A stretch of DNA of 64,000 nt from Candidatus Berkelbacteria bacterium (GCA_016187225.1 JACPKC010000002.1:3387-67386); one strand, 5' to 3'. Counted from the stretch's first letter, positions 1 through 21,860 are shown. The notes: generated by a model from the sequence alone, not told the origin. A program made the numbers and translations.

Positions 1-408
1 CTGAAAATTTGCTAACACCTCGTTTTTTTGCTCGCTCACCGCAGGCGTCGATGGCGCCTTGTCGGCTTCAATCTCGATCAATTTGCGAGCATACGAAAAA
101 CTTGTGCCCGAACAAACGGCGAGTGAAAGCGCCATGCCTTGAGCGGCGCCAAATTCGTTCAAAAAACGCGACAGGTCAGGATTCTCCGGATTCGGCGTGG
201 CAAGTTTAAGATTTGCGCCAGCGCGCAAGTAAGGTATAAGGAGATACTTTGAAATTGATTCTTCGGGAATGACATGCAGGATAGTGCGAGAAAATGGGTA
301 GTCGACTAGATTTACATATTGTAAGCGCAGACGCTCGGCAAGCGCTTGCGCTTCGCGTTCCTCCTCATCGCGATTTACGTTTTGCACCATCGAACGCACA
401 TCAAACAT
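1..408 (-). CDS. Type II secretion / type IV pilus assembly ATPase (GspE/PilB family), N-terminal domain only; gene continues past the left window edge
   Basis: Reverse-strand translation from ATG at 408 gives MFDVRSMVQNVNRDEEEREAQALAERLRLQYVNLVDYPFSRTILHVIPEESISKYLLIPYLRAGANLKLATPNPENPDL..., the pattern of the T2SSE_N/MshEN domain (LxxPYVDL ... IP ... P). It does not appear in the ORF track because it is truncated by the window edge. Confidence 0.45.
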   Translation of the reverse strand, partial: MFDVRSMVQNVNRDEEEREAQALAERLRLQYVNLVDYPFSRTILHVIPEESISKYLLIPYLRAGANLKLATPNPENPDLSRFLNEFGAAQGMALSLAVCSGTSFSYARKLIEIEADKAPSTPAVSEQKNEVLANFQ

Positions 409-488: not shown

Positions 489-1178
489 ATGCCGGAGACA
501 ATGACTCCGTCGGAAGCGCAAGAAGCGGCGCCAGATGGGAAGAAGCCAATTGAAAATGCCCCTACTCATCCAGCGCTCGGTGGCAACGATAAGGCCAGAG
601 AATTAGCTCGAGATCTTGCAAGGGCGGCTGACGGAGAGACGCTTGTCGAGCCCACATTGCCCCCATTTAGTGGATTTGGAAAGCCCTCCACCAAAGAAGA
701 CCCATTGGCGCTTCATTTGCCTAAAAGTCCAGGCGAGGCAGGCGTTAGCGAAACAATTCAGCCTTTGGCGAACGATGGTGTTTTAAGCCCAGTCGATCTG
801 GCCAGTTTCCCCGCCCAACTTGCGCCTGTCGTTCAAGAACTTGTTGCCCTTATCCCGGATAATCTGCATCTTAAAATCGGTAGCTGGGAACAGCCGCAAG
901 CATCGGGCAAAGGTATCGAAGTTATTCCTTTCTTTGTTGAGAAGGATGGAAAGTTTGAAAAAATTGGCGAAGACCAGTTTCAGGCTCTAATCAGTAAGTT
1001 GTCGAATAAGGATAAAAATTCCATCACGCTTGCGCATAAAAACCTCGCGCAAGCCGCCCAGGAATATGTCAACTCGATGCAAATCTCGACGCGACCAGCG
1101 CCTGCCGAGAACAAGGGTGAATCAAAAGGAATTTTGGGTCAGGTTCGTTCTTGGTGGAATCGCCTACGAGGCAAGTGA
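489..1178 (+). CDS. hypothetical protein (acidic, Pro/Ala-rich N-terminus, no TM)
   Basis: ORF 294..1178. Start reassigned to the in-frame ATG at 489, preceded by AAAGGAGG 6 nt upstream. No recognisable motif. Confidence 0.5.
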   Translation: MPETMTPSEAQEAAPDGKKPIENAPTHPALGGNDKARELARDLARAADGETLVEPTLPPFSGFGKPSTKEDPLALHLPKSPGEAGVSETIQPLANDGVLSPVDLASFPAQLAPVVQELVALIPDNLHLKIGSWEQPQASGKGIEVIPFFVEKDGKFEKIGEDQFQALISKLSNKDKNSITLAHKNLAQAAQEYVNSMQISTRPAPAENKGESKGILGQVRSWWNRLRGK

Positions 1179-1274
1179 GAAAAAATCTGGTTCAGATTGA
1201 CATTTCCCTCCTGATATGATACAAATTTTTGTCCTTTAAGCAAGGGCGAAAATTTTTTATTGGAGGGTTTTACA

Positions 1275-2204
1275 ATGAGATACTTTTTTCGCGAGCCGTT
1301 TTGGGTGATCGTAATGGCCATCTTTCTCGTGGGGCAGGCGAAGGCGTATACATCGCTCTACAGTCCGGCAGATTACCTTCTGCCGATCGTCGTCGAACGC
1401 CCGGAGCAAAGCGGGAGCCGGTCGGTGAATGAAAAGAAGCTCCAGGAGGGCATCGAGCGACGAGTCAGGGCGAACGGCTGGCCGTACGAGGAAGAGCCGC
1501 GTGCGTTTTACGCTTTCAAAATTTCGTATGAAATTTTGGCCGAGGGCGATGAGTCGCGGCGGCGATCTTCAACCTTTCGTTATCAGGTGCCGGAGTTTTA
1601 TTCAACCTGGGATCGGAAGGGTAAGATGCGAACTCATGTTCGCACGCGCACCGTCTCGAGCACGCAACGCGACTCCCAACACCTCAAGGGTTACACCTTC
1701 GAGGTGAATGGTCGAGTGATCGATCAGGATGGGAGAACGATTCTTGAAGCCTGGCGGAGCGTGCCTTGGGTTGTGCGCCCACGGGCGTCGAATTCGAGCT
1801 CCTACCGCGGAATAGGTGGGAGCGAGTCGAGTAGCGTCACGCGCCGCGCCAACTCAGACGCGATCGAGTCCCATCAGCTCGACAGAGCGATGGACGATCT
1901 CATGGGCGATCTGACCGCCCAACTCACTCGCAAGGTTGCCGCGGGTGAGATTGCGAGAGTGTCTCGCGTATCGCGGGGCGGGCCATCGGGGCGAGAAGGT
2001 GTAGTACCGGAAAGTATCCGGTGCTCCTCGGAAGCAGTGGTGCTTCTCGAGGCCTGCCCAGAAACGGCTGAGAAGATTCGTGCCATCCTTGTGCGCGGCA
2101 ACCAACCGCGCTTCACGCGAGCGCAAACCGGCGAGCGGTTTTGGGTGTTACGCGAGGCTCAAAACGAGCCTCGCGGCACCTTTGAAATGGTGCGCATAAA
2201 GTAG
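1275..2204 (+). CDS. hypothetical secreted protein (signal peptide, Arg-rich, higher GC than neighbours)
   Basis: ORF 1260..2204. ATG at 1275 after GGAGGG. N-terminus MRYFFREPFWVIVMAIFLVGQAKA is a signal peptide. Followed by a terminator hairpin. Confidence 0.5.
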   Translation: MRYFFREPFWVIVMAIFLVGQAKAYTSLYSPADYLLPIVVERPEQSGSRSVNEKKLQEGIERRVRANGWPYEEEPRAFYAFKISYEILAEGDESRRRSSTFRYQVPEFYSTWDRKGKMRTHVRTRTVSSTQRDSQHLKGYTFEVNGRVIDQDGRTILEAWRSVPWVVRPRASNSSSYRGIGGSESSSVTRRANSDAIESHQLDRAMDDLMGDLTAQLTRKVAAGEIARVSRVSRGGPSGREGVVPESIRCSSEAVVLLEACPETAEKIRAILVRGNQPRFTRAQTGERFWVLREAQNEPRGTFEMVRIK

Positions 2205-2209: not shown

Positions 2210-2258
2210 AGCTTTTTTATCGGCCTGTCAGCGTGTGTCTGTAGGCCGGTTTTTTATT
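2210..2258. terminator. bidirectional rho-independent terminator between convergent genes
   Basis: CGGCCTGTCAGCGTGTGTCTGTAGGCCG hairpin (2221-2248) flanked by AGCTTTTTTAT upstream and GTTTTTTATT downstream. Confidence 0.5.
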
Positions 2259-3474
2259 CTGGAACGAAAACAGTCCAGACGCGGCCATTGTCGTCCGGCA
2301 CCGCATCTTGATAAAGCTCTTCACCCGTACTGGCATTTTTGATCGTAACCGGCAGATCCGGTGGTAATTGAAGTGTAGCCGTGCCACTGCTATTCGTTAT
2401 CACTTCATCGATTTTTTGCCCGCCAGTATAGATTTCAAGGAGTTGATTAGGTTCAGTTTGATTCGTGTTTTTATTATTAGTAGTGATTAGCGTTAGACTC
2501 ACTGTCTGGCGCGTGTGATCAAGTGTCACCTTACTTTCCTTGCCTTCTTCAACAAAGGCGGGACTAATAAGATTACCCTCTTCGTCGTAGATATCGACCT
2601 CGCCGGGTGCGACTTCCTCAACCGTGTCTTGTCCATTGGAGTCGGTGATGACTTCGTGAACAACGTCGGACTTGCGTTCCTTAACGCGCAATTTTACAGC
2701 CGGCGCCCCACTCTTGAGTTGAATCTTAACTTTTCCCGCCTTAATACTGGGCGTTGCCCCGCCGCCGCCAACACTGACTTGATTCCCGCCAGGGCTTAAA
2801 TCGACGTTGGAGCTCCCGGGTGAGATCGAAGGTGTAATATCGGGCGCGTTGAAAGTGGTATCGGCGACGCCTAGAACCTGGAGAATATAAATTCCGATTG
2901 GCCACGCGAGAACAACGAGAGCAATGCCAATGACCGATTCAGTCAGCATGCTTTTTGCGGCCTTGCTTTGCGTGTCGTCGCCGGCGGCTGTGAGATAGCG
3001 AATCCCGCTTCCCAAAAAAAGAATCATAAAAATTACCGTGGCGGCGATTACGACCAGATTCCAGATTTTTGGAAAAGACGTACCGATATCATGGAAAATT
3101 GGGGGCAAGCTTTCGGGCGGTTCGAGGGCGAGCCCGACATTACCTTCTTGGCCAGTTTGTGTTGCCCCGCCCCCAGCGCTTTCACCGGAAAGTTTTTGCA
3201 TTATATTACCTAGAGTACCCTTTACGCCTTCTACCGCATCATTAATCCCTTTACCAGTGTTTTTAGGTATTTGCCCAAGTGATTTTAAGCTATCGTTAAT
3301 TGATTCCAAGATGGCGCTAGAGCCATCTTTAGCGTCAGCGGGTTCTGTTTTTCCAGCCGCACCACTTTCCCCCCCGGGGTCATCTCCAGCCTGGACTGTC
3401 GATATCGAGAATATCGGGGAAAATACAAAAACAAAGAAGAGTAAGCAATAATAAATAAAACAATAACTCTTCAC
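2254..3474 (-). CDS. secreted protein with long Gly/Ser-rich ectodomain and C-terminal two-helix VirB2/TrbC-pilin-like hairpin (paralog 1 of array)
   Basis: Signal peptide MKSYCFIYYCLLFFVFVFSPIFSISTVQA. Hairpin IWNLVVIAATVIFMILFLGSGIRYLTAAGDDTQSKAAKSMLTESVIGIALVVLAWPIGIYIL shares the motif YLxxAG(D/N)xxxxKxAK...aw..G with five downstream paralogs. Confidence 0.55.
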   Translation of the reverse strand: MKSYCFIYYCLLFFVFVFSPIFSISTVQAGDDPGGESGAAGKTEPADAKDGSSAILESINDSLKSLGQIPKNTGKGINDAVEGVKGTLGNIMQKLSGESAGGGATQTGQEGNVGLALEPPESLPPIFHDIGTSFPKIWNLVVIAATVIFMILFLGSGIRYLTAAGDDTQSKAAKSMLTESVIGIALVVLAWPIGIYILQVLGVADTTFNAPDITPSISPGSSNVDLSPGGNQVSVGGGGATPSIKAGKVKIQLKSGAPAVKLRVKERKSDVVHEVITDSNGQDTVEEVAPGEVDIYDEEGNLISPAFVEEGKESKVTLDHTRQTVSLTLITTNNKNTNQTEPNQLLEIYTGGQKIDEVITNSSGTATLQLPPDLPVTIKNASTGEELYQDAVPDDNGRVWTVFVPE

Positions 3475-3499
3475 GTTTTACCCCTCGCTCGTAACCAAT

Positions 3500-3895
3500 T
3501 TACTCAACCGTTGTGGGGATGCTGTCGCTTGTCACGCCTTCGATTCCCAAGAGACGCAGAACATAGGTGCCAACTGCCCAGGCGGTTACCACGAGCACCA
3601 AGCCAACCACGGCGTCGAGCATGAGCGCCCGCGCTTTTTTCACCTGCTCTTCATTGCCGGAAGAGGCAAGATACATAATGCCGCCAACCAGAAAAAGAAT
3701 TACAAACACCACGCCCGCTACGATGATGGCGATATCGAAGATGGATTCGATTGTGCCTTCAAAAGTCGTGAATTTATTCGGAATTTTATCGGGTTGTTCG
3801 ATCGTTTGCCCAAAGGCAACCGCCGGCATGGCCCAGCTCGAAACAGCTAAAATCTTGACTAAACTTTCCCTCTGTCGCATTAACCAGACTGTCAT
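3500..3895 (-). CDS. VirB2/TrbC-pilin-like small membrane protein (paralog 2)
   Basis: 131 aa: signal peptide, then IAIIVAGVVFVILFLVGGIMYLASSGNEEQVKKARALMLDAVVGLVLVVTAWAVGTYVL (TM-loop-TM). Confidence 0.6.
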   Translation of the reverse strand: MTVWLMRQRESLVKILAVSSWAMPAVAFGQTIEQPDKIPNKFTTFEGTIESIFDIAIIVAGVVFVILFLVGGIMYLASSGNEEQVKKARALMLDAVVGLVLVVTAWAVGTYVLRLLGIEGVTSDSIPTTVE

Positions 3896-3922
3896 AAATC
3901 CTCCTTTGATAAATATATATAT

Positions 3923-4244
3923 TTAGCCGCCGATATCGATTGAACCAATCCCAAGCAAACCCAAAACGTAGTTGCCCACGGCCCACGCAATCACAATAAT
4001 CACCATCCCGATCACGGCATCAATTAAAAGCTGTTTGGCTTTTTTAGTTTGTTCATCGTTACCCGCATTAGTTAAGTACATTATCTGGCGGATCAATATT
4101 TTGCAAAACTTGCCCGCCACCGCTGGCGCTTTCGCCTGTCGACTTCACACTTGGCGCGCCTGGCGCAGTCTTAGCCGCTTTCGCCAAAACGAGTGACGGC
4201 GCAAGAAACACAATTAATGAAATTAAGGAAATAAATTTTCGCAT
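3923..4244 (-). pseudogene. frameshifted or truncated copy of the paralog at 5976..6605 (signal-peptide ORF and C-terminal pilin-like ORF in different frames)
   Basis: Reverse ATG at 4244 encodes signal peptide MRKFISLISLIVFLAPSLVLAKAAKT... and stops after 59 codons. In another frame, 3923..4120 encodes MYLTNAGNDEQTKKAKQLLIDAVIGMVIIVIAWAVGNYVLGLLGI, identical to the C-terminus of the 5976..6605 product. Confidence 0.5.
3943..4083. repeat. about 140-bp segment identical to 5991..6130 (pilin-paralog C-terminal module)
   Basis: Direct string match AACCAATCCCAAGCAAACCCAAAACGTAGTTGCCCACGGCCCACGCAATCACAATAATCACCATCCCGATCACGGCATCAATTAAAAGCTGTTTGGC...GTTAAGTACATTA present at both loci. Confidence 0.85.
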
Positions 4245-4259
4245 AGCCCTCCAGCCTAT

Positions 4260-4580
4260 TTATTGAATGCCCAGATCAAGTTTGCCCGCCTCGCCAATGC
4301 CGAGGAGTTGCAAGATATATGTGCCTATCGCCCAGGCAATCACGACAATAATCAAACCCACGATCGCATCCACCAACAGTTTTTTGGCTTTATTCGTGTT
4401 TTCCTCGTTGCCGGCGGCCACAAGATACTGAATGCCGCCAATTAAAAAAAGCAGAACGAAAATCACCCCGGCCAAAGTGATGCCGATGTTAAAAAAAGCG
4501 CTGATCGCGTCCGAGATATTGGTAAATTCCGTGCCACGTAATTTATTTGGCGTATCGACGCTTTGGGCGAGTTGAATCAT
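4260..4580 (-). CDS. VirB2/TrbC-pilin-like small membrane protein (paralog 3, no obvious signal peptide)
   Basis: 106 aa: ITLAGVIFVLLFLIGGIQYLVAAGNEENTNKAKKLLVDAIVGLIIVVIAWAIGTYIL. Confidence 0.6.
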   Translation of the reverse strand: MIQLAQSVDTPNKLRGTEFTNISDAISAFFNIGITLAGVIFVLLFLIGGIQYLVAAGNEENTNKAKKLLVDAIVGLIIVVIAWAIGTYILQLLGIGEAGKLDLGIQ

Positions 4581-4670
4581 TTTTCTTGCCTCTATAAGTT
4601 TATAATGCCACTATACCATACTCGTTTCGTCGAGCGTATTTCTCCACAGAGGTGGTGAATTGCCAGTGTC

Positions 4671-5117
4671 CTAGGGTTCCAACTTAATCGCGTCCGGCAG
4701 TATGAACGAGGCGGCGAGAAATTTGAGAAACATATAGGAGCCAAAGACCACGCCGATACCGAGTAAAGTATATAAGATGCCCATTTTAGCCGCTTGTGCT
4801 TGAGTGGCGTTTCCACTCGAGGTAACAAGCTTGTAGCCATTTAAGATCAGAAAAATCAGGGCGATTGCCAGAACAAACCTAATCATTGCGTTCGCGATCG
4901 CTTTCAAAAATATCATAATATTTTCAAAGGTTTGTTCTTTTGGGTCGCTAACAATGCTCCAGTCGATACCAAAAAGATTTTGATCAGCGGCGTGCGTAAG
5001 TTGAGGAATGAGAAAAACGGCAAAAAGAAAAATTAAGCCTATCAAGAAGGTTTTTGACTGAACACGTTTTACCAGTTGGTAGGTTTTGGTTCGCAATGAC
5101 ATTTTTTCCTCACTCAA
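4671..5117 (-). CDS. VirB2/TrbC-pilin-like membrane protein (paralog 4, divergent)
   Basis: 148 aa. Signal peptide ends ...LTHA. Two C-terminal helices around TSSGNATQAQAAKM. Confidence 0.5.
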   Translation of the reverse strand: MSEEKMSLRTKTYQLVKRVQSKTFLIGLIFLFAVFLIPQLTHAADQNLFGIDWSIVSDPKEQTFENIMIFLKAIANAMIRFVLAIALIFLILNGYKLVTSSGNATQAQAAKMGILYTLLGIGVVFGSYMFLKFLAASFILPDAIKLEP

Positions 5118-5979
5118 TAAAGCGTTTTAAGACTTCGAGAATACCATAAGCGGTGAGCACAACGACGGCGCCCATAATTGCAAACAACATGCCGTTTTTA
5201 GCTTCTTTAGTCGCATCGGTATCGCCAGCGCCCAAAAGATAGCGGAAAGCATTTATCATAAAGAAAACCAGCGTTACCAGGCCAAGAAGAATGATCAAGA
5301 TGTTGGGGATGCTCGAAGTGACTAGGGTTTCAATCGAATCGACGTTTAAAACACTTTTCAAATCTATCTCGCTGATTGGCGTGATAACTACCTTCGGGCT
5401 GGGTGGAAGAGTTGTGCCCTTACTGCTCCCGCCCAGGCCGCCGTTTCTGCTACTACCTCCGCCGCCCCCACTCCCACCACTTCCTCCATCAGCCCCCCCG
5501 CCAGTCCACGGAAACTGCCAGCCGTTACCAGACCCGCCATCAATCCCATTATTAAGATCTGATTCCGTAAACAGATCATCATTTGGACCATCGTCAAACC
5601 ACCAGCGGCTATAATCATCATCTGTCATTTCCCAATCATTGTCGCCATCGTTGCTTCCTACGCCGCTCTCGCTCCCAGATCCGCCATCAATTCCATATTC
5701 AAAAGGCAATCTTACGTTGTCATCATTGCCCGTGTACCAGCTGTTATCTTGATTCGGAACATCGTCAAACCATGAGCGATTATCATCTTGATCGGCAGAA
5801 GAAAATCCACCACTATTGTCCTCATTATATGGCAAGTACCAGCCGTTATATGGGTTAAATGAAGCTTGAATTGGAAAGCGAATGTTGGAATAGACAAATG
5901 CGCTTACTCCAACCAAGCCAGTCAAGCCGAGGATGAATAGTCGAAGCTTAATTTTTTTATTGAGAGAGAATTTTTTCAT
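5110..5979 (-). CDS. secreted protein with Asp/Trp/Gly-rich low-complexity ectodomain and C-terminal pilin-like hairpin (paralog 5)
   Basis: Signal peptide MKKFSLNKKIKLRLFILGLTGLVGVSAFVYS. Repeats of the type WFDDxPN..W and a (GGS)n run. C-terminus FRYLLGAGDTDATKEAKNGMLFAIMGAVVVLTAYGIL. Confidence 0.6.
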   Translation of the reverse strand: MKKFSLNKKIKLRLFILGLTGLVGVSAFVYSNIRFPIQASFNPYNGWYLPYNEDNSGGFSSADQDDNRSWFDDVPNQDNSWYTGNDDNVRLPFEYGIDGGSGSESGVGSNDGDNDWEMTDDDYSRWWFDDGPNDDLFTESDLNNGIDGGSGNGWQFPWTGGGADGGSGGSGGGGGSSRNGGLGGSSKGTTLPPSPKVVITPISEIDLKSVLNVDSIETLVTSSIPNILIILLGLVTLVFFMINAFRYLLGAGDTDATKEAKNGMLFAIMGAVVVLTAYGILEVLKRFIE

Positions 5980-6605
5980 AAACTAATTAAACCAATCCCA
6001 AGCAAACCCAAAACGTAGTTGCCCACGGCCCACGCAATCACAATAATCACCATCCCGATCACGGCATCAATTAAAAGCTGTTTGGCTTTTTTAGTTTGTT
6101 CATCGTTACCCGCATTAGTTAAGTACATTACGCTTTGAAAACTGGAACCTAGATCTGGCGCACCAATTTGAAGGATTGCGTTCCCACCAGTGCCACTTGT
6201 TCCACCACCATTGCTACCACCATTTGAATTTGCGCCGCCACTCGCGGCTTTATTAGGTGATCCACCTGACGAGGAACCGTTTTGAGCTAAAAGCCCTCCT
6301 TGCTGACGAATTTCATCAAGGCCTGGCGCCGGGTCTACGTCATCGGGGCGGCTAAGTGGCCTAAGTTCATTCCTACCGAGCGAGGTGTTGGTAAGACCCC
6401 CGTTAAATTCGGCGTCAATTTTATCTTGCGCATCCCCGCCCTCACTAATCATTCCACCATCAACCCAAGCTGGGGATTGAACTGGATCAGCTGAAGCGGT
6501 AAAACTAATTTTAGAGTAAGCAAAGGCGCTGGCGCTGATTAGACCCGTCAGTCCGAGGGCAAAAAGTCGAAGCTTAATTTTTTTGTTGAGATAAATTTTT
6601 TTCAT
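5976..6605 (-). CDS. secreted protein with Gly/Ser/Asn-rich ectodomain and C-terminal pilin-like hairpin (paralog 6)
   Basis: Signal peptide MKKIYLNKKIKLRLFALGLTGLISASAFAYS is nearly identical to that of paralog 5. C-terminus MYLTNAGNDEQTKKAKQLLIDAVIGMVIIVIAWAVGNYVL. A 4-nt overlap with the upstream gene start suggests translational coupling. Confidence 0.6.
   Translation of the reverse strand: MKKIYLNKKIKLRLFALGLTGLISASAFAYSKISFTASADPVQSPAWVDGGMISEGGDAQDKIDAEFNGGLTNTSLGRNELRPLSRPDDVDPAPGLDEIRQQGGLLAQNGSSSGGSPNKAASGGANSNGGSNGGGTSGTGGNAILQIGAPDLGSSFQSVMYLTNAGNDEQTKKAKQLLIDAVIGMVIIVIAWAVGNYVLGLLGIGLISL
5991..6130. repeat. second copy of the about 140-bp identical segment (see 3943..4083)
   Basis: Direct string match. 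Confidence 0.85.
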
Positions 6606-6651
6606 ATCAAAGATTGTTGTATCGTTTTGTCTCCTCGCGATAATAAATCAC

Positions 6652-8052
6652 TCACTCACCCTGTAAAATGGCAGAAATTTTTTGAGCCGCTTCTTCAATG
6701 GCATTTTGTGGCGCCTGACTCTTGGTGCCCACGCGTTGAATTAAGTCGCGGAAAATTGTGTCAACTTTGTCGGGACGTTTCGTTTTATACCAACTCTTTG
6801 CCGTCTGTTGCTGATATGCAAACGGATTACCGCTCTCGCCTCGATCTAAAACGGTGGGCGGTTCTTCTTCGGGTTTAGGATCAGGCCGTTTTGTTGCCGA
6901 ACGATAAGGATTACCGCGCTCAATCACCAAATTTTTTAACACCTCCCAGGCTAGAGTGGGATTTTTGGTATTTTTTGTGACCGTTTCAATATAGTACGAA
7001 GCATAGTCGACCGGCGTATCGATGTCGCGCACCTGCGGCAGAGGTATGGATGAATATTTGAGTGTCGGCGCGAGCTGGTTAAAGATTAGTTCGTAGTATT
7101 GAAAGCCAAAAATCATCGCCGCCTTGCCTTCAATAAAAGCCTGAACATCGCCTGGCATAGAGGTGTTCCAGGAATAGTAAGATTTGGCTGGATCGGCAAA
7201 ACCGGTAAAGCGTTCTAATGCCTCTGTGCCCTTGAAAACAGTTTGGCCAACGGCATTTTTAACGCCTAAATGAAAGCTTGCGTTGGTGTGCTCGGGCGAA
7301 ACCATCTCGGCGCCGTTTTGGAGCATGAGCGCGTAGACAACGTCTTCGGCGCGCGAAATGTTGTTGGCGGTGCCGGCGGCGAGACCAGAGACGCTAATAC
7401 TCCCATCGGGATTTTTTTCAGTGAGAAGTTCAACCGCGCGCTGGAGCTTGTCGTAGGTATTGAGCGGATCGCGGAGCAAGTCAGCCTCTTCATCGCGGTC
7501 GACATCTTCGAGTTCAGAGATTTTTTTGTTGAAAACGGCGGTGTTTTTCCAGATGCCGAGGGTGTCAACATAGTAAGGCAAGCCATAAATGCTTCCATCG
7601 TACACCACATCTTGCGTAACGACCGGGGCAAACAGGGCTTTGAGGGCATCTTCATCGGTTTGATTGCTGTTTTTACCGAGGAGACCATTGGGCATCGGGA
7701 CGAGTTTATTCTTGTGTCGCGGAAGCCAATCGTTACGGATCGACCAAATATCCGGCCCCTCGCCCGCGGCGAGCGCTTCAGCGGTAGTCAGTTCGAACTC
7801 GCTCGCGCTCATGAGTGTGTATTCAAGTGTGATCGCGGGATTGTCGCGCTCGAACTCCTCGATAATCGGTTCAAAAACCTCGGCGCTATCAAAGGTGCGC
7901 CAGATCTTGAGCGTGACTGGTTCGGTTTGGCCAGCGATGCCGCTACTTTGACTGCTTGAAGATTTCCGGCCGATACAGCCAGTTAAGAGTATTGGAATCA
8001 AGGCAAGCGCTAAAGCTCGCCCAAACCATTTAATTGGAGTTTTCTGACTCAC
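6652..8052 (-). CDS. ABC-transporter-type extracellular solute-binding lipoprotein (sugar-binding family 1-like)
   Basis: Lipobox LLTGC after MSQKTPIKWFGRALALALIPI. Body KIWRTFDSAEVFEPIIEEFERDNPAITLEY...GLPYYVDTLGIWKN is typical of SBP_bac_1 proteins. No permease gene adjacent. Confidence 0.65.
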   Translation of the reverse strand: MSQKTPIKWFGRALALALIPILLTGCIGRKSSSSQSSGIAGQTEPVTLKIWRTFDSAEVFEPIIEEFERDNPAITLEYTLMSASEFELTTAEALAAGEGPDIWSIRNDWLPRHKNKLVPMPNGLLGKNSNQTDEDALKALFAPVVTQDVVYDGSIYGLPYYVDTLGIWKNTAVFNKKISELEDVDRDEEADLLRDPLNTYDKLQRAVELLTEKNPDGSISVSGLAAGTANNISRAEDVVYALMLQNGAEMVSPEHTNASFHLGVKNAVGQTVFKGTEALERFTGFADPAKSYYSWNTSMPGDVQAFIEGKAAMIFGFQYYELIFNQLAPTLKYSSIPLPQVRDIDTPVDYASYYIETVTKNTKNPTLAWEVLKNLVIERGNPYRSATKRPDPKPEEEPPTVLDRGESGNPFAYQQQTAKSWYKTKRPDKVDTIFRDLIQRVGTKSQAPQNAIEEAAQKISAILQGE

Positions 8053-9422: not shown

Positions 9423-10124
9423 TTAGGGCGCTTCATCATAGGCGAGGGTAAGAGCGGCGCGTTCGCGAAAGCCAGCTTGGGCAAGACAGCGAGCGGCTTC
9501 GGCAAGAGTGGCGCCAGTAGTGCAAATATCATCGATCAGTAAAACAGGCCCTTGAATTTCAGGGCCTGTCCATTTAAAAACGCCGCTCACATTTTTTTGC
9601 CGCTCGCGGCGCGAAAGCCCAACTTGACTCCGCGTTTCTTGGATTCGCTGAAGTTGAGTCCTGACAGGTATGTGAGTTAACTCGGAGAGGGCGCGAGCAA
9701 GTAGAAAAGCTTGATTATAACCACGGGATCGCAAACGCTGGGGGCTGATTGGGATTGGAATGAGCGCCGACCAAGACGTGTGTTTAAGAATAGTTTGCCA
9801 ACGACTATATGCATGAGCCGCAAACTCGTCGAAGGCGGCCGAGAGCCCCTGATATTTTAACTTGTGGAGAGCGCGTTTCAGGGGTTGTTTTTGGTAACTC
9901 CCGAAACAGCCAAGCGCCTTGAGGTTCAGAGATTGTTGGTGCGTTTTGCACAGCGCGTTCGGCGCGAACGTAGTTCGTCGACAAATCTGGCATTGAGTTG
10001 GCGAGAGCGAGAGCGCGCTTTCATGAATACAAGTTTTGCAAAACCAATTTCCTCGTCGCTGGCAACCTAGACAAAAGGTTGGGCAGAGACAATCTCCAAT
10101 TTCATTAAAAATAAGTTTAAGCAT
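9423..10124 (-). CDS. comFC: ComF-family protein (ComFC-like phosphoribosyltransferase with N-terminal Cys-rich zinc finger)
   Basis: CxxC...CxxC pairs at the N-terminus. PRTase motif VLLIDDICTTGATLAEAARCL. Confidence 0.75.
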   Translation of the reverse strand: MLKLIFNEIGDCLCPTFCLGCQRRGNWFCKTCIHESALSLSPTQCQICRRTTFAPNALCKTHQQSLNLKALGCFGSYQKQPLKRALHKLKYQGLSAAFDEFAAHAYSRWQTILKHTSWSALIPIPISPQRLRSRGYNQAFLLARALSELTHIPVRTQLQRIQETRSQVGLSRRERQKNVSGVFKWTGPEIQGPVLLIDDICTTGATLAEAARCLAQAGFRERAALTLAYDEAP

Positions 10125-10843: not shown

Positions 10844-13800
10844 ATGCGTTGGCTCGACCGAGCGATCATATTTTTTTCTGCACTCTTGAGCGCAGTCTTG
10901 ATGGTAATTCCGCAAAGTGTTGCGGCGGTTGATTTTAATTCTTCAAATATTATTTCCAACAGTGAGTTTATCGATACAAATTCAATGACCGCGCCGGAAA
11001 TTCAGCGTTTCTTGGAAGACCGGGGCGGTTTTTTAAAAGATTTTACAGAAAACGGCCGCTCGGCCGCGCAAATCATTTACGATGCCTCTCACGGTTACGG
11101 TGATGCTTCGGGCGCGATCAACGGCATCGCGCTGACAACGAGTACCGGCACGGTGAGTCCGAAAGTGATCCTGGTCACCCTTCAAAAAGAGCAAAGTCTG
11201 CTGACAATGACATCCCAAAACGACAGCGCCTTGCGGGCGGCGATGGGCTATGCTTGTCCGGATTCGGGCGGGTGTAACTCTAACTATGCTGGTTTTACCA
11301 AGCAAGTTGAGAACGGCGCTTGGCAGTTGCGCTATAACTATGAGCGTTCACAGGCTACAGGCTTTGGCGATTATCAAGTGGGTCAATCATTTTGTTTTGA
11401 CGATTTTAACGGCACTAACTGCGGCACATATGAAAATCGCGCCACCGCCGCGCTCTACCGCTACACGCCGCATGTTTATAATGGGAACTACAATTTCCAT
11501 AATCTCTACTACAACACCTACAACTTCACTGGGCCGGAGTTCGCGGCGACCCTAATTTCTTGGTCAAGTTCGGCTGGGCTTTATCAGTATCCTTCGGTAA
11601 GCAGTGGTCAGGATGCCACCTTGCAGGTCACACTGCGAAATATGGGGCGCACGACTTGGCAAAGAGGGGCGGTGAATTTAGGCACGGAACAGAATCGCGA
11701 CCGCATCACCGGTTTCAATCGTGGAACGGGCTGGCGATCAGGAAATCGAGTTTCGTTGGTTGAAGTCTCGGTTGCGCCGGGTGAAAATGGCACCTTTAAT
11801 TTTGTGGTTTCGCCGCCTTATTCTCTTCAAAGCGGCACTTATCGAGAACACTTCCGCCTCGTGGCCGATGGCATCAGCTGGTTTGGGCCAGAGTTATTCT
11901 GGGATATTTCAGTGACGGCGAGTTATCAGGCATCAGTCAGTTCATGGTCAACTTCAAGCGGTTCGCATACTTATCCAAGCGTAACTCGGGGCGGAAATGG
12001 CACAAATATAATTTTGAGAGTTCAAAATACTGGCGCGGCAATTTGGCAGAGAGGGACGGTGAATTTAGGCAGTGATCAGCCGCGCGATCGCGGCACGGGC
12101 TTTTTGCGCGAGTCGGGCACTGGAGTGGCTTCGGGCTGGGTCTCACAGAATCGAATCCAGATGCAAGAGAGTTCAGTCCCGCCTGGTGAAACAGCGACTT
12201 TCTCCTTCTGGCTTCAAGCGCCATCGAATATGCGCCCGGGGACTTACCGAGAACACTATCGTCTGGTGGCGGATGGATTAGATTGGTTCGGACCCGAGTA
12301 CTACTGGGATTTTGATTTTCCTTTGGAGTCAAAACAGATTGCTCTAATTGACGACTCTCCAGCTCGGAAAGTTCAAGTGGGCGAGGAAACCACTCACCAC
12401 TCACCACTCATCACTCACCTGCTTACTTTCAGCGAATCGCCAGATGCGGTAAAACTCGCTTGCGCTCTTAATCTTTCTGAAGATGCGGTCGAAATTAATC
12501 AGGCAACTCAAACCGCTATTATCTCGGGTGAGATTCCTGATTTGAGCAAGCTGGCCGCCGTGTTGCCAACCCTCGAGAGTGTGGAAGCCGATGAGCCAAT
12601 TCGAATCTTCTCAACCCCGAATGACCCCAGGTATAGTAGTCAGGCAACGACTTTCTCGCAAATGAACATGCAAGCCGGCTGGGATTACGTGCAGGGCAAA
12701 ACGAGCGCTGTCATTGCCGTCATTGATACCGGCGTAGACGGAACGCACGAAGATTTAACCGGCAAGGTATTGGCAGGCAGAAATATCTCGGCCAATACCG
12801 CGATCGCGGCTAATACTGACTCGGATGACAATGGGCATGGCACGAATATCGCCGGCATCGCGGCGGCGGGCGGCGATAATTCCATTGGAATGACAGGGGT
12901 TGATTGGCAGGCGCGAATTTTGCCAATCAAAGCTTTCAATAGTGATGGATTGGCAGAGACTTCAGATATCGTTTCGGCGATTGAGTATGCTATTAATCAG
13001 AATGCGACCGTGATTACGATGAGTTTTGGTCGCTCAACACCTTCAGATGCGTTAGAAGCGGCGGTTAATAGCGCCGCCAGTCGCGGCATTCTTCTTGTCG
13101 CGGCGGCTGGCAATACGGGCGAGAGTTCAGTTTACTATCCCGCGGCTTATGAAAATGTGATTGCGGCCGGCGCCGTGCAGGCCGATAATGCTCGTGCCAG
13201 TTTTTCTAATTACGGTAGCGCTCTTGATTTAATGGCGCCGGGTGTTTCAGTAATCGCAACTGCCGACGGCGGGGGGTATGAAGCCGTGAGCGGCACGTCA
13301 TTTGCTGTGCCTTTCATTGCTGGCATCTCAACCTTGGTGAAGGATTTTCATAGTAGCGCCAGTGCGAGTGATGTAACGAGTATTTTAAACTCGACGGCCA
13401 CCAAGGTTAGCGGTATGAACGGCAATCTGCGAACCGATGAATATGGCAACGGTGTTGTGAATTTAGCCGATGCGCTTGTTAGCGCTGGAGACTATCAGGC
13501 TTCGACAATTTCTTGGTCAACCAGTAACGGTTTATTTACCTATCCAACTCTCTCTTTGGGTGGCAGTGGCGCGAATGTCATTCTCACAGTGCGAAATACC
13601 GGTACCTCGCGCTGGTTTCGCGATCTGGTGCATCTAGGCGCCGATCAGCCGCGCGATCGCGGCACGGGCTTTTTGCGCGAGTCGGGCACTGGAGTGGCTT
13701 CGGGCTGGGTCTCACAGAATCGAATCCAGATGCAAGAGAGTTCAGTCCCGCCTGGTGAAACAGCGACTTTCTGGATTAGATTGGTTCGGACCCGAGTACT

Positions 13801-14237
13801 ACTGGGATTTTCGGGTTTTATCAGAACTCGATGGGTATGGAGCAAGCACCTTAAACTGGTCAACCTCGGATGGACTTTTTACCTATCCAAGTGTTATTCG
13901 AGGTGGAGCTGGCACGAATATCGTGTTACGGGTCCGGAATACCGGCACAACGACCTGGATACAAGAGACTGTTCATCTAGGCGCCGATCAGCCGCGCGAT
14001 CGCGGCACGGGCTTTTTGCGCGAGTCGGGCACTGGAGTGGCTTCGGGCTGGGTCTCACAGAATCGAATCCAGATGCAAGAGAGTTCAGTCGCTCCGGGTG
14101 AAACCGCCACCTTTTCATTTTGGTTACAAGCGCCGTCCGGAATGAGTCCGGGCACCTATCATGAACACTTCAAAGTCGTAGCCGATGGTCTGGGTTGGTT
14201 TGGTTCAGAAGCGTACTGGGATGTTATCGTGAGATAA
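10844..14237 (+). CDS. large secreted S8 subtilisin-family peptidase with internal I9-like propeptide and five Ig-like/beta-sandwich repeats; reading frame interrupted near 13773
   Basis: Signal peptide MRWLDRAIIFFSALLSAVLMVIPQSVAA. Catalytic triad contexts AVIDTGVDGTHEDL, DNGHGTNIAGIAAAG and GTSFAVPFIAGI. Repeat unit ...NLGxDQPRDRGTGFLRESGTGVASGWVSQNRIQMQESSVPPGETATFSFWLQAPS..GTYREH(Y/F)RLVADG..WFGPE occurs at least five times. ORF 10844..14101 and ORF 13755..14237 are joined by an apparent 73-bp deletion relative to the repeat copy at 12204. Confidence 0.75.
12074..12203. repeat. 130-bp perfect intragenic repeat, copy 1
   Basis: Identical to 13643..13772, and to 13986..14090 over 105 bp. 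Confidence 0.85.
13643..13772. repeat. 130-bp perfect intragenic repeat, copy 2 (ends at the deletion/frameshift junction)
   Basis: String identity with copy 1. Downstream sequence rejoins the repeat unit 73 nt later than in copy 1. Confidence 0.85.
13986..14090. repeat. 105-bp perfect intragenic repeat, copy 3
   Basis: String identity with copies 1 and 2. Confidence 0.85.
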
Positions 14238-14296
14238 GGCGCAAATCACTAGATCAACACTACGGTCTAATTCACTTCATTGGCCTTGAACTAGAT

Positions 14297-15181
14297 ATGT
14301 CTCTACAGAATCAGCACAAACAAGCTCAACAGGCGCTTTATGACGCTCATCTCCTCGATGATCTTGCCGCGGGCGCCGGAACCTTTGGATTTCGCAAGCC
14401 CAAGTTATTGCGCGATCTCGCTTTTGCGCGTTGGCTTGCCCGCCTTGAACTTAAAAGCGGTGAGCAAGTGCTGGATGTTGGTTGTAATGCCGGCGCTCGA
14501 CTTGAAGCTCTTCGGCGCGAATACGGGATCGAGGGCACGGGCATTGATCTTTCGCCGAAGACAATTGCGCTTGGCCAAAAACATTTTCCAGCGTTGACCC
14601 TTCAGGTGGGAGACGCCGAACTTTTGCCTTATCAGGAAAATTCTTTTGACACAGTCATTAGTTTCGAAACCTTTGAGCATCTGCCCAACCCTGGCAAGGC
14701 GTTGGCAGAAATCGGTCGTGTTGTTAGGCCTGGTGGTTGGGTGTTGATTTACGCTATTTCACGACGCAATGCTGGCACTTGGCATTGGCTTCAATCTAAG
14801 TTGAGCGGCGGTCGCTTGGGCACGGGCGCCTTGCGCGATCATCTTCCCGAACTTCTTGTTCCACCAGAATGCTTTCCAGCTTGGTCTCAAAAAGCGGGAC
14901 TCAAGATCCAACAGAGAGGTCTTTTGCATCAATTTTTTACCCTTTTGCATGATGAACCTTGGAGCGCCTTCCTCGCAACACTTGCCCCCAAACGCTCTCG
15001 GCCACGACTTGATACAATAAAAATGGCAGGCAATCTACCTCGCGCGCCGGGCAAGTTTTTTATGCTCTACCGCGTCTGGCTTCATGGCATGGAGATTGTC
15101 ATGAGTCTTTTGGATTTACCCTGGCAAATGGCACGAGTAAGCGATGGTATTTTTGTTTTATTGAAAAAACAAGAATTGTGA
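14297..15181 (+). CDS. class I SAM-dependent methyltransferase
   Basis: Motif I VLDVGCNAG. Post-I and II regions IDLSP...DAELLPYQENSFDTVISFETFEHLPNPGKALAEIGRVVRPGGWVLI. Confidence 0.8.
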   Translation: MSLQNQHKQAQQALYDAHLLDDLAAGAGTFGFRKPKLLRDLAFARWLARLELKSGEQVLDVGCNAGARLEALRREYGIEGTGIDLSPKTIALGQKHFPALTLQVGDAELLPYQENSFDTVISFETFEHLPNPGKALAEIGRVVRPGGWVLIYAISRRNAGTWHWLQSKLSGGRLGTGALRDHLPELLVPPECFPAWSQKAGLKIQQRGLLHQFFTLLHDEPWSAFLATLAPKRSRPRLDTIKMAGNLPRAPGKFFMLYRVWLHGMEIVMSLLDLPWQMARVSDGIFVLLKKQEL

Positions 15182-16814: not shown

Positions 16815-17951
16815 ATGAAGATCGCCATTATTTTGGGCACGCGCCCAGAAATTATTAAACTCGCCCCAATTCTTCGTCGCATCCAGGCGTCCGAGAATGA
16901 GCTTATGCTCATCCATACTAATCAGCACTACTCGGCAAATATGGACGGGGTATTCTTTAAGGAATTAGCTTTGCCAGCGCCAGACTCTAATCTTGGGGTT
17001 GGTTCAGGTACGCATGGCGCTCAAACTGGTTTAATGCTTGCCAGGCTCGAGAAGGCGTTGAACATGAATCGACCGGACGCAGTTCTAGTTCAGGGAGATA
17101 CTAATACAGTTTTAGCAGGCGCCTTGGCGGCGGTGAAGCTTGGTATTCAAGTCGGTCACGTGGAAGCGGGGCTTCGAAGTTACGACCGAACGATGCCGGA
17201 AGAGATCAATCGCGTTCTGACCGACCATGCGGCCGATATTTTATTTGCGCCCACTCAAAATGCGGCCCAGCTTTTACATGCCGAAGGTATTCCTAGCGAA
17301 CGAATCGAGGTTACTGGTAATACGATCGTGGATGCAATAAACGATCATCGTGAGTTAGTCAATTCACGTTCGTATATTCTATCCACGCTAAAGCTAGAGC
17401 CTCGAGGTTATTTGCTTTTAACCCTGCATCGGCCAGCGAATGTTGACCGACGAGAAACGCTCGCTGAAATTATTATAGGAATCACGAACGTGGCACGAAT
17501 AACTCAACTGCCGGTAGTCTTTCCGGCGCATCCTCGAACAGTTAAACAGCTTGAGCAATTCAAGCTCACGCTTCCGGTTTCATTTCGTCAAATTAAGCCA
17601 ATCGGCTACCTAGATTTTCTAGGCTTAGAAGCAAATGCCGAGCTTATTCTCACGGACTCCGGCGGAATTCAAGAAGAAGCCTGTGTCCTGCGAGTGCCTT
17701 GCGTGACCATCCGAGAAAACACCGAACGTCCCGAAACTCTGGCAGTAGGCGCTAACGAATTGGCAGGTCTAACCTCAATCGGCATTCAAGCGGCGAGTGC
17801 CAAAATGCTTGCGCAAGCTCGAACTTGGCAAAATCCTTTTGGCGATGGTCGCGCGAGCGATCGAATTCTTCACAAATTATCCACAAGGTTTTCCACACTG
17901 CCTGCAACGGGCTTTGCTAGTGTTAAGGGTCATGGCGACCACAACTTCTAA
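16815..17951 (+). CDS. UDP-N-acetylglucosamine 2-epimerase (WecB/NeuC family)
   Basis: MKIAIILGTRPEIIKLAPI...HTNQHYS...LVQGDTNTVLAGALAAVKLGIQVGHVEAGLRSYDRTMPEEINR is canonical Epimerase_2. Confidence 0.85.
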   Translation: MKIAIILGTRPEIIKLAPILRRIQASENELMLIHTNQHYSANMDGVFFKELALPAPDSNLGVGSGTHGAQTGLMLARLEKALNMNRPDAVLVQGDTNTVLAGALAAVKLGIQVGHVEAGLRSYDRTMPEEINRVLTDHAADILFAPTQNAAQLLHAEGIPSERIEVTGNTIVDAINDHRELVNSRSYILSTLKLEPRGYLLLTLHRPANVDRRETLAEIIIGITNVARITQLPVVFPAHPRTVKQLEQFKLTLPVSFRQIKPIGYLDFLGLEANAELILTDSGGIQEEACVLRVPCVTIRENTERPETLAVGANELAGLTSIGIQAASAKMLAQARTWQNPFGDGRASDRILHKLSTRFSTLPATGFASVKGHGDHNF

Positions 17952-19578: not shown

Positions 19579-19594
19579 TTAGCAAGGAGGGTGT

Positions 19595-20758
19595 GTGGCA
19601 GTCGAACCAGTTAAATTTTGGCAAGCGCTTGAAAAAGAGAATCTCGGTCCAATTTTTCAAGTTCCATGCTCGATATTCAAAAATTTTCTGAACTTTTGTT
19701 ATGACACCGACAAGGAAGTCTACAATCCGGTTCATGAAGGCATTGCCCTAGTTCAAGCTTCGGGCGCTTATCTTGCTACCGGTAAATTGCCGATCGTGAT
19801 GCTTCAAAATTCCGGTTTTGGCAATCTTTTGAATCCCCTCACCTCATTGAATCAGGTTTATGACATCCCTGCTTTGCTGATGATGAGTTGGCGCGGAGCG
19901 GATGGTCGAGGCACTGATGCGCCGGAACATGATGAAATGGGAACCATGTTCTTAAAAATTCTTAAGGCGGCGAATGTTGCCTCTGAAATACTTGATGAGA
20001 GACATTTCGGCGAGCAAATTTATAAGTCGAGCCAACTCGCTCAAAGCCAACGTCGCCCGACCGCGTTAATTCTTAAAAAAGATTTTTTTGCGCCCTACCA
20101 AGCACGCCAATCACACATCTCTCCAGCGCAAGAATTCACACGGCATCACGTGATCTCGGTGATAAAAAATTGGTTTGGCGAGCGAGCGATTTACCTTTCT
20201 TCGACTGGCTTCCCAAGCCGAGATTCGTTTAACGTTCGCGATACGCCCGATTTTTACATCATGGGTTCAATGGGCTATACGGGCGCACTCGGCTTACATA
20301 TTGCAAAATCAAACGACCGTCCAGTTGTGCTCTTCGAAGGCGATGGCAGTGTTTTAATGCATATCGGCGCACTCGCTTCAATTGCGGCGCTTAAGCCAAA
20401 AAATCTGATCCATTTTGTTTTAGATAACGAAGCTTATGATTCAACCGGTTTCCAGCCATCGCTAAGCAAAGGCATCGATTTGTGTAAAATTGCGGAAGGT
20501 TTCGGCTACACGTATACATTGAACGTTCGTGAAGAAAATGATTTAAGGACTCTTCTCGCAACCGTGGAATCAATTAAAGGACCGATCTTGATCCGCGTCA
20601 AGGTGGGGCAGGTTCATACAAAGACTGGCCAACGCGTTTCGGATAAGTATTCTCCAGTTCAGATTACAGATCGTTTTATGGAGAATTTGCGATCTGGCTA
20701 TCTTGGCATTCAAGAGTCAGGCAATCAAGCGCGTGACGTGGTTGAGGTTAATGTCTAA
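19595..20758 (+). CDS. ppd: phosphonopyruvate decarboxylase (thiamin-diphosphate enzyme; sulfopyruvate decarboxylase is the closest alternative)
   Basis: 387 aa. ThDP motif GDGSVLMHIGALASIAALKPKNLIHFVLDNEAY (GDG-x26-NN). Positioned directly after pepM. Confidence 0.7.
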   Translation: MAVEPVKFWQALEKENLGPIFQVPCSIFKNFLNFCYDTDKEVYNPVHEGIALVQASGAYLATGKLPIVMLQNSGFGNLLNPLTSLNQVYDIPALLMMSWRGADGRGTDAPEHDEMGTMFLKILKAANVASEILDERHFGEQIYKSSQLAQSQRRPTALILKKDFFAPYQARQSHISPAQEFTRHHVISVIKNWFGERAIYLSSTGFPSRDSFNVRDTPDFYIMGSMGYTGALGLHIAKSNDRPVVLFEGDGSVLMHIGALASIAALKPKNLIHFVLDNEAYDSTGFQPSLSKGIDLCKIAEGFGYTYTLNVREENDLRTLLATVESIKGPILIRVKVGQVHTKTGQRVSDKYSPVQITDRFMENLRSGYLGIQESGNQARDVVEVNV

Positions 20759-21852: not shown

Positions 21853-21860
21853 GAGGTTGG

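Follow-up and report, generated by a model that had tools for sequence, protein, structure and literature searches.

A 64,000-nt stretch from a metagenome-assembled genome (MAG) of Candidatus Berkelbacteria (Patescibacteria, or candidate phyla radiation, CPR), hereafter called the window, carries at positions 2254-6605 an array of seven consecutive genes, g1 to g7, whose products all match the Pfam family PF18895 (T4SS_pilin, 'Type IV secretion system pilin'). The array is another example of the VirB2-like pilin arrays described in Patescibacteria and no new kind of system. We consider it probable that its products are hairpin pilins which are exported by the Sec pathway, extracted by a VirB4-type type IV secretion system (T4SS), combined as plain core and decorated subunits, and diversified by recombination within the array.

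The hairpin module and the genes that carry it

The open reading frame (ORF) listing places all seven ORFs on the minus strand, and a MAFFT alignment reveals one module common to them, which consists of a hydrophobic helix, the loop YL(T/A)(A/S)(A/G)G(N/D)(E/D)xxxKKAK and a second hydrophobic helix. The initial annotation, which had proposed a same-strand series with a shared two-helix module and an AG(N/D)(E/D)x3-4K(K)AK loop, was correct in this respect. The AW..G that it placed in helix 2 is indeed found often, as AWAxG, but g2 and g3 have AY or SY in place of AW. PF18895 is matched by 7/7 ORFs; five of them (g2, g4, the C-terminal half of g5, g6 and g7) exceed its gathering cutoff of 26.6 bits, and g1 and g3 fall just under it. 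A hidden Markov model (HMM) derived from the homologues of g4 and g6 matches all seven paralogs, and PF18895 is present as precomputed annotation on 29/29 homologues of g4. Identity of the paralogs to g1 is 21-49%, with the exception of a g5 fragment that shares a repeat with g1 (82%). Judged by these profile scores, membership in PF18895 is far beyond chance and the array is real.

The NCBIfam model NF045849 (Mbov_0395 family pilin-like conjugal transfer protein) gives 33-34.2 bits with a best E of ~1.5e-8, under its 40-bit equivalog cutoff; on these scores the NF045849 proteins appear as relatives and the array proteins are not members. No type IV pilin family is among the Pfam or NCBIfam matches of the paralogs. 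The class III signal peptide of type IV pilins (G/F(M)xxxE, followed by a single N-terminal hydrophobic helix) was not found either, the leaders being of the Sec type and the helices two in number. The family itself is very large. Out of 1.84 billion, a profile made from g6, g4 and 24 homologues (A3) matches 66,652 cluster representatives with E <= 1e-3, of which 16,689 reach E <= 1e-10, and a scan of species-representative genomes yielded 78 loci, nearly all of which are labelled Patescibacteria/CPR (Berkelbacteria, Doudnabacteria, Moraniibacteriota, Saccharibacteria and others).

Hydropathy profiles predict Sec-type signal peptides with A-x-A-like cleavage motifs in g2, g3, g6, g7 and the N-terminal parts of g1 and g5, and two hydrophobic segments with a basic loop in every intact paralog. 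This agrees with the layout expected at the outset, except that g4 is leaderless and that g1 and g5 are without helix 1 in the window. The positive-inside rule suggests that, once the signal peptide is removed, the topology is N-out, loop-in, C-out. The helical hairpin foreseen for the module is also borne out by AlphaFold2, whose model of g6 from the A3 alignment consists of a signal-peptide helix (residues 2-28), a short disordered stretch and two helices (45-77 and 82-115), the hairpin having a predicted local distance difference test (pLDDT) score of 85-89. The hairpin helices are Gly-rich, G, E and K positions are invariant, and conserved polar residues are located in the loop.

What distinguishes the paralogs is mainly the material attached to the hairpin. 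The core short pilins are g6 (3500-3895; 131 aa with signal peptide; PF18895 39.5 bits) and g4 (HYW32_00085; 4260-4580; 106 aa; 42.2 bits), the latter without a signal peptide in this genome. Upstream of the g4 ATG there is a 90-nt non-coding spacer (4581-4670), with an in-frame stop 4 codons before the ATG. The leader has been lost here, and g4 may insert leaderless or be non-functional. The apparent pseudogene g5 is split between two frames: a signal peptide and short ectodomain are encoded at 4068-4244, and the loop and helix 2 follow in another frame at 3923-4120 (PF18895 26.9 bits for this C-terminal half). In g3 (4671-5102; 143 aa from the ATG, or 148 aa from a TTG at 5117) a signal peptide and a short N-terminal part precede a divergent hairpin with a SSGNATQAQAAK loop and the motif GSYMF; its PF18895 (22.1 bits) and DUF6112 (21.9 bits) matches are both sub-cutoff, and the family HMM gives 23.3 bits (E 6.7e-8).

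Larger N-terminal parts are found at the beginning of the array. In the 289-aa product of g2 (5110-5979; PF18895 32.4 bits) the signal peptide is followed by ~180 aa of ectodomain, rich in Gly/Asp/Ser/Trp and containing WFDD repeats, and then by a hairpin with the variant motif TAYGI; the gene contains internal repeats of 48 nt and 27 nt. As deposited, g1 (HYW32_00100; 5976-6605; 209 aa) consists of a g2-like signal peptide, a Gly/Ser/Asn-rich ectodomain of ~125 aa and only the loop and helix 2 of the module; PF18895 is its best Pfam match (24.6 bits), the family HMM gives 70.7 bits, and a protein-database search with g1 returned only self-matches. The parts that precede helix 1 measure ~20-185 aa across the paralogs, instead of the 40 to more than 300 aa estimated initially. 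Likewise, of the several 4-nt overlaps that had been noted there is only one, between g1 and g2 (ATGA at 5976-5979); the remaining spacers are 7-90 nt long.

The last gene, g7 (HYW32_00065; 2254-3474; 406 aa; PF18895 27.4 bits), encodes a terminal 'decorated' pilin. A signal peptide and a Gly-rich part of ~100 aa lead to the hairpin (aa ~133-204), which is followed by a low-complexity linker and two beta-sandwich domains (aa ~245-404). The module had been described as C-terminal throughout; this does not hold for g7, in which it is central and has ~200 aa behind it. A homologue search with g7 returned essentially g7 itself, the word-index search being defeated, as for g1, by low-complexity, fast-evolving regions. 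For this reason a single-sequence model of g7 was made, in which the beta domains reach moderate confidence: AlphaFold2 predicts an all-beta C-terminus at aa 245-404 (pLDDT ~60-77), for which Foldseek finds B. anthracis TIE (6.6e-9), the GBS52 minor pilin (5.7e-7), SdrD and SpaC. These matches agree with weak Pfam matches of g7 to CarboxypepD_reg, SdrD_B and SpaA. The predicted fold suggests tandem immunoglobulin (Ig)/CnaB-like adhesin-type domains of the kind found in Gram-positive surface proteins.

The broken state of g5 and the missing helix 1 of g1 are most likely the result of a local assembly collapse in the deposited MAG. A 145-nt direct repeat, with 99% identity between its two copies on the minus strand, covers the loop and helix 2 of g1 (copy 1, 5986-6130) and of g5 (copy 2, 3939-4083). 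Helix 1 is absent from both genes in the window, and both breaks fall exactly at the 5' edge of the repeat (junctions 6130/6131 and 4083/4084). Logan assemblies of two runs, SRR12113424 and SRR12113420, served as an independent check. Their contigs are the same as the window over thousands of bases and depart from it exactly at the g1 and g5 junctions, in frame. L093 (SRR12113424) and L094 (SRR12113420) have zero mismatches from the solute-binding protein gene upstream of the array to AGTTTTCAAAGCGT in g1, past which they read GCCAAGTATTGTTTCA (…SFQSVPSIVS) where the window has AATGTACTT. A third contig, L007, is identical to the window for 1,938 nt through g2, g3, g4 and the start of g5, and past GATCCGCCAGAT it reads ATCGATGCAAGTTTTCAAAGCGTGCCAAGTATTGTTTCA in frame (translated ...NIDPPDIDASFQSVPSIVS), at the place where the window has its frameshift junction.

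The ends of these contigs are informative as well. L007, L093 and L094 all end exactly 30 nt past the start of AGTTTTCAAAGCGT, i.e., at k-1 in a 31-mer graph, just as contigs should when two genomic copies run together in a repeat that both contain. The starting points of L001 (3972) and L007 lie 30 nt from the 3' end of the exact repeat. Moreover, the homologue P0032 indicates that the motif DLGSS(I/F)Q(T/S)(I/V) normally precedes helix 1. The repeat interior had 0 exact matches in JGI metagenome contigs, which were scanned twice. The contigs are explained most simply if the organism has complete g1 and g5 genes that share an identical hairpin-coding segment of ~250 nt, the interior of which was collapsed in both copies; both genes would most likely run from ...AGTTTTCAAAGCGTGCCAAGTATTGTTTCA... 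through a helix-1 segment of ~80 nt to AATGTACTTAAC. Six paralogs and a pseudogene had been proposed, but the Logan contigs contradict the junction, and the true count is probably seven, all intact. An assembly error would thus have introduced a false pseudogene and a false helix-1-less pilin into a public MAG.

Conserved order and variable extensions in related genomes

Three related Berkelbacteria loci (L002, L004 and L005) have the same layout, with a solute-binding protein gene followed by 5-7 PF18895 genes of which the last is large (348-420 aa, a hairpin with a C-terminal extension). The gene order is kept: g2-, g3-, g4-, g5- and g6-type genes, the latter duplicated in L002, and finally a g7-type gene, so that the g7 architecture occupies the last array position also in L002, L004 and L005. 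Copy number and extensions vary between these MAGs and order is conserved, in line with the array comparison envisaged by the initial annotation. In L004 and L005 the array is followed by 2-3 unrelated opposite-strand genes and then by an ATPase of the T2SSE family (60-65% identity) orthologous to the one near the array in the window. In L002 (GCA_040960375.1), one opposite-strand gene and a gene for a 923-aa protein are followed by PrgI (VirB3), TraC-like and VirB4-like genes.

Positional orthologues agree in 32-72% of their hairpin residues, with the best conservation in g4 and g6, the plain pilins (45-72%); the g4 hairpin is 66% identical to those of L002_c and L004_c, and g6 is 45-52% identical to its orthologues over the hairpin. 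For g3 the orthologues are L002_b and L004_b, and those of g5, L004_d and L002_d, are intact. In the N- and C-terminal extensions identity does not exceed 24%, and lengths differ several-fold. The ectodomains of the g2 orthologues L002_a, L004_a and L005_a, for example, are ~25-110 aa long. By these figures the hairpins are conserved and the extensions hypervariable, as had been proposed.

The one gene without a counterpart in the relatives is g1. Its leader resembles that of g2, with 74% nucleotide identity over 106 nt; the two signal peptides, first described as nearly identical, are similar. A g2-like leader, an ectodomain rich in Gly/Ser/Asn that is unique to the gene, and the same hairpin as in g5 are combined in g1. 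The gene reads as a mosaic of recent origin and provides direct evidence that recombination takes place inside the array.

The wider distribution was surveyed with the module HMM in 82 loci (the window, the three relatives and the 78 genome loci), which are phylogenetically non-independent. Arrays comprise 1-10 modules, typically 4-7. At least 100 aa follow the hairpin in 22/390 module-bearing ORFs, and 21/390 contain 2-3 modules in one frame. A global search extends the latter observation, with many family members being 'poly-pilins' in which 2-15 hairpins are arranged head-to-tail behind one signal peptide (proteins P0034, P0037, P0054, P0135 and P0160; loci such as L092 8531-10207, L082 5388-6968 and L080 9169-10483). 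The available literature on Patescibacteria VirB2-like pilins contains no mention of such fusions that we found.

Proposed pilus-like assembly and competing explanations

According to the reading that we favour, the array would form one operon-like unit of PF18895 'T4SS pilin' genes in the Berkelbacteria chromosome. A candidate promoter directly upstream of g1 (6640-6667, minus strand; TTTACA-16-TATTAT, with 10/12 matches to the sigma-70-like consensus) may serve the array; it is the best match to a consensus, and such sites are not more numerous than in shuffled sequence. Each product would be exported by Sec via its cleavable signal peptide and form a helical hairpin in the membrane, its two ends facing outward and its basic KKAK loop facing the cytoplasm. 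Homology with the VirB2-like pilins of the monoderm-type, MPF_FATA-like T4SS of Patescibacteria suggests that the pilins would then be extracted by a VirB4-dependent machine, with genes at another site of the genome, and built into a pilus-like or conduit structure contacting the host cell. The short conserved g4, g5 and g6 products would be the structural subunits. The array-end genes g1, g2 and g7 would add to the same hairpin fast-evolving outward parts, either N-terminal Gly/Ser/Asp/Trp-rich low-complexity stretches or C-terminal tandem Ig/CnaB-like adhesin-type domains, that may decorate or tip the structure and set its binding specificity. New variants would arise by recombination inside the array, as in the case of g1. 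The analysis itself shows family membership, the predicted hairpin and topology, synteny, variation in copy number and extensions, and mosaicism; that the products form filaments, need VirB4 and act in contact with a host is inferred. The link to a T4SS is drawn from L002, in which the PrgI, TraC-like and VirB4-like genes (AAA_10/DUF87/P-loop_TraG) lie 5-6 kb downstream of a syntenic array.

A number of observations weigh against this account. The g4 product is without a signal peptide and every g4 orthologue has one. No VirB4, VirB3/PrgI, VirB6 or TraC-like gene is found in the 64-kb window or in the 2.5 kb past its left end, and tblastn of the window with PrgI, the TraC-like protein and VirB4 of L002 gave no match; a virB4 gene within about 20 coding sequences of the array is present in L002 but not in the window together with L001. 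Across the survey a VirB4-like ORF occurs within 10 kb in 5/82 loci, a search of limited sensitivity that was seeded with one partial VirB4, and iteration of the VirB4 HMM on the 82 loci produced no growth past 4 ORFs. PF04956 (TrbC/VirB2), the model named in the initial annotation, matches none of the paralogs at E <= 1. Comparison by hhalign of A3 with an alignment of seven MPF_T plasmid VirB2/TrbC proteins (A4) gives a probability of 1.6%, both alignments being shallow, and a family profile search of PDB sequences returned nothing under E = 0.16 and no pilin. Finally, no report of an observed pilus of PF18895 proteins was found in the available literature on the family. The array proteins appear to have VirB2 architecture; homology to canonical VirB2 is not demonstrable by these comparisons, and remote homology is possible. 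As for other recurrent Walker-A ORFs beside the arrays, which were considered as VirB4 or VirD4, they turned out to be FtsH, SMC, ComM-like Mg-chelatase, FtsK, PNPase, RecG, BipA, DnaA, RecF and RecA.

Interpretation as VirB2/TrbC-like T4SS pilins is nevertheless supported by PF18895, the NF045849 relatives, the AlphaFold2 hairpin, the synteny in L002 and the literature. Recently, Quinonero-Coronel et al. (2025; PMC12102498) applied PF18895 and other pilin profiles to 3,035 Patescibacteria genomes and found VirB2-like pilins in 1,948 VirB4-containing assemblies, in 1,135 of which they are close to virB4. Association with virB4 is therefore frequent but not obligatory. Furthermore, in the work of Wang et al. 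(2023; PMC10633639), transposon sequencing identified the predicted pilin series inside the T4SS cluster of Southlakia epibionticum as essential for epibiotic growth.

The hairpin could instead be a membrane anchor only, the array then encoding variable surface proteins that neither polymerise nor depend on a T4SS. Such proteins would account for the adhesin-type Ig-like domains or low-complexity ectodomains of the decorated members, and they are compatible with the small number of subfamily loci in which VirB4 was detected within 10 kb and with the filament missing so far from the available literature. However, g4, g6 and their orthologues, which are the members in greatest number and with the best conservation, have hardly anything to display (an ectodomain of ~20 aa), and the loop and both helices, with their invariant G, E and K, are conserved beyond the needs of an anchor. 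An anchor would also not explain why the family is co-located with virB4 in 1,135 assemblies and why an array is essential inside a T4SS cluster (PMC12102498, PMC10633639). We regard this explanation as unlikely.

The poly-pilin fusions bear on another question, namely whether the hairpins form a filament or a ring. Tandem fusion is typical of ring-forming hairpins, e.g., the duplicated or multiplied proteolipids of V/A-ATPases, and the 2-15 hairpins found behind one signal peptide, together with the 2-3 modules in a single survey ORF and the Gly-rich helices, could point to a membrane-embedded ring or channel similar to proteolipid c-rings rather than to an extracellular pilus. Yet neither a carboxylate nor any other functional residue is conserved in the membrane-embedded part, and the polar residues that are conserved are those of the loop. 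Fusion of modules is equally compatible with neighbouring subunits of a helical filament, and the genomic and literature links of the family are to T4SS, not to ATPase rotor genes. A ring thus seems quite improbable.

A comparably low probability is given to the idea that the partner of the array is the orphan PilB/GspE-type T2SSE ATPase encoded nearby, which would be VirB11-like or would replace VirB4 in pilin extraction. VirB11 belongs to the same family, PF00437, and is needed for biogenesis of the Agrobacterium T-pilus. An ATPase orthologous to that of the window is found downstream of the array, in the direction of transcription, in 16/82 loci, a count that has no chance expectation attached to it. 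They include Berkelbacteria, MAGs labelled Saccharibacteria or Moraniibacteriota, and unclassified ones (window/L001 3562-5094, L004 15671-17206, L005 14828-16258, L017, L018, L024, L025, L028, L030, L046, L065, L069, L077, L089 and L090). The large Walker-A ORFs that were checked past the ATPase are DnaA, RecF/SMC-type, FtsK or RecA and none is PilT, PilC not having been looked for. On the other hand, the protein has the length of PilB (476-511 aa) and an MshEN N-domain in L004 and may be a plain type IV pilus motor; one to three unrelated opposite-strand genes separate it from the array; and it is missing from 66/82 loci, in a phylogenetically non-independent set. DnaA is encoded a few kb past the ATPase in L018, L030, L065, L077 and L089. 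The T2SSE ATPase may be an orphan functionally tied to the array, or the arrangement may be mere clade-specific synteny near oriC. Its co-location with the array is best taken as a lead.

An integrated conjugative or mobile element, suggested by the family name and by nearest named relatives from integrative and conjugative elements (ICEs) of Mycoplasma, was rejected as highly improbable, since no relaxase, integrase, tRNA border or compositional shift is seen at the array (GC content 0.45-0.50 vs ~0.49 in the flanks; tRNAs only at 58.7-59.9 kb) and the chromosomal flanks (solute-binding protein, NTP-transferase, HSP20, ComFC and PilB) are conserved across several Berkelbacteria; the rarity of relaxases in Patescibacteria T4SS loci (PMC12102498) also speaks against it.

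A bolder reading is that the array could be a recombining cassette system in which a polymerising hairpin is repeatedly re-joined to new leader, ectodomain or adhesin modules, with g1 as a fresh chimera of the g2 leader and the g5 hairpin and with the poly-pilins as fusions of the same module elsewhere. The conserved order of the genes would then specify an ordered heteropolymer with decorated ends and a plain middle, and the T2SSE ATPase might take part in its extraction as a VirB11 analogue. If true, this would amount to a T4SS/T2SSE hybrid pilus machine in monoderm CPR bacteria. In this full form the proposal is speculative, and we would not expect it to hold.

Genomic neighbourhood and known systems

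On its upstream side the array is flanked by genes for an extracellular solute-binding protein (6652-8052, minus strand; SBP_bac_1 1.4e-19; also in L002, L004 and L005), an NTP-transferase, HSP20, a ComFC-like protein, PAP2 and an S8 subtilase, after which a large polysaccharide/phosphonate cluster begins. The ComFC-like phosphoribosyltransferase-domain protein (9423-10124, minus strand) combines a weak Pribosyltran match with an N-terminal Cys-rich region. Downstream of the array, two convergent genes without Pfam matches (1260-2204, plus strand, for a 314-aa secreted protein, and 489-1178, plus strand) precede the T2SSE (PilB/GspE-type) ATPase gene, whose 5' end lies at 1-408 (minus strand) and which is completed by L001 (3562-5094) to encode 510 aa (T2SSE 6.7e-108). 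Both comFC and a GspE/PilB-type ATPase gene are thus close by, as noted from the start.

The interval between array and ATPase always holds one to three opposite-strand genes with secreted or low-complexity products (analogous positions are L002 13421-14683, L004 12462-15550 and L005 11497-14635). Comparison of these proteins across the relatives by BLAST revealed no detectable analogue of 1260-2204, and the sole pair found was W_229/L004_618, with 28% identity over 86 aa. The interval is a fast-evolving companion position. The opposite-strand neighbours 1260-2204 and 489-1178 were considered as parts of the system and set aside, as there is one weak conserved pair only.

Two further regions upstream deserve mention. 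The 1,085-aa secreted S8 subtilase (10844-14101) contains repeated N_BRCA1_IG/NPCBM-associated Ig-like domains. Its C-terminal ~120 residues resemble an out-of-frame upstream repeat, the ORFs 13755-14237 and 14195-15181 overlap there, and the region corresponds to two separate genes in L002 and L004; a frameshift or another repeat-related assembly problem may be involved. Within a glycosyltransferase/polysaccharide cluster that reaches ~57 kb, a phosphonate-type gene set (17797-23329) encodes a phosphoenolpyruvate mutase-nucleotidyltransferase fusion, a thiamine pyrophosphate-dependent decarboxylase-like protein, an Fe-alcohol dehydrogenase, a cytidylyltransferase and a cytidine diphosphate-alcohol phosphatidyltransferase. 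This set suggests phosphonate-decorated surface structures (e.g., 2-aminoethylphosphonate or a phosphonoglycan/lipid) in a CPR bacterium.

Among known systems, the Pam pili (PamA/PamB; bioRxiv 10.64898/2026.03.03.709456) are a CPR-specific filament thought to mediate host contact and have Ig-like domains like the g7 C-terminus. They are formed by donor-strand exchange of Ig-fold pilins with membrane-anchored chaperones and have no helical hairpin, the paper being silent on T4SS and VirB2; with a different assembly and fold, they were rejected as a related system. A helical hairpin is found in the archaeal conjugation/DNA-import pilins CedA1/TedC (A. pernix pilus, PDB 8dfu), the sole pilin among the top Foldseek matches (rank 3; target-normalised TM-score 0.58; E = 1.6, not significant).

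The canonical VirB2/TrbC/TraA pilins (PF04956) of the T-pilus, F-pilus and RP4 pilus share with the array proteins a long signal peptide, two helices, a short basic loop and the placement of both termini outside, as well as small core members and, in some pathogens, multiple paralogs (Bartonella, Anaplasma; PMC12102498). They differ in the loop, which in alignment A4 reads FGRxSLG and in the array is acidic-then-basic (NEE..KKAK). In addition, the host of the array is monoderm and some of its members carry large fused domains. The best named relatives outside the CPR are the Mbov_0395/MMCAP2_0565 proteins of Mycoplasma ICEs (NF045849), which come from a monoderm, MPF_FATA-type context and whose model matches g1, g4, g5 and g6 with E 1.5e-8 to 3.5e-8 over nearly its whole 80 residues. 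Compared with them, the array is chromosomal, multi-copy and outside any ICE.

The closest parallel is provided by the VirB2-like arrays of Patescibacteria themselves, such as the six-gene array of S. epibionticum ML1, the 'Sec-secreted array' of Nanosynbacter lyticus TM7x and the 441 arrays catalogued in PMC12102498, in which 2-11 pilin genes are on average 25% identical and for which adaptation to different host strains was proposed. They belong to the same Pfam family and have in common with the Berkelbacteria locus the divergent tandem paralogs, the signal peptide and hairpin, the location on a CPR chromosome rather than a plasmid and, in class ABY1, a nearby comF; the same source places T4SS genes near dnaA. 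The S. epibionticum array lies inside a T4SS cluster, whereas the Berkelbacteria array is neither inside nor adjoining one within the available sequence. The published arrays are most abundant in Microgenomatia and Saccharimonadia, and the present one is found in Berkelbacteria.

Of the gene sets enriched in CPR, few have experimental evidence of a part in epibiotic life, and VirB2-like arrays belong to these few. A 2025 review (PMC12857230) describes their products as the sole VirB2-like pilins of a monoderm T4SS and emphasises that a pilus is so far a possibility only. In the available text on the Patescibacteria arrays no mention was found of long low-complexity ectodomains, C-terminal Ig-like fusions, conserved gene order, a mosaic gene or an orphan T2SSE neighbour. 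Measured against these accounts, what the present analysis adds is the decorated end genes in conserved order, the hairpin-Ig fusions, the poly-pilins, the orphan T2SSE, a relationship with pilin-like proteins of Mycoplasma ICEs and the probable misassembly. The locus offers a clean Berkelbacteria example of the published arrays, with conserved order, plain pilins flanked by decorated ones, a mosaic paralog and a recurrent orphan T2SSE, and these features provide concrete hypotheses for structural and genetic work.

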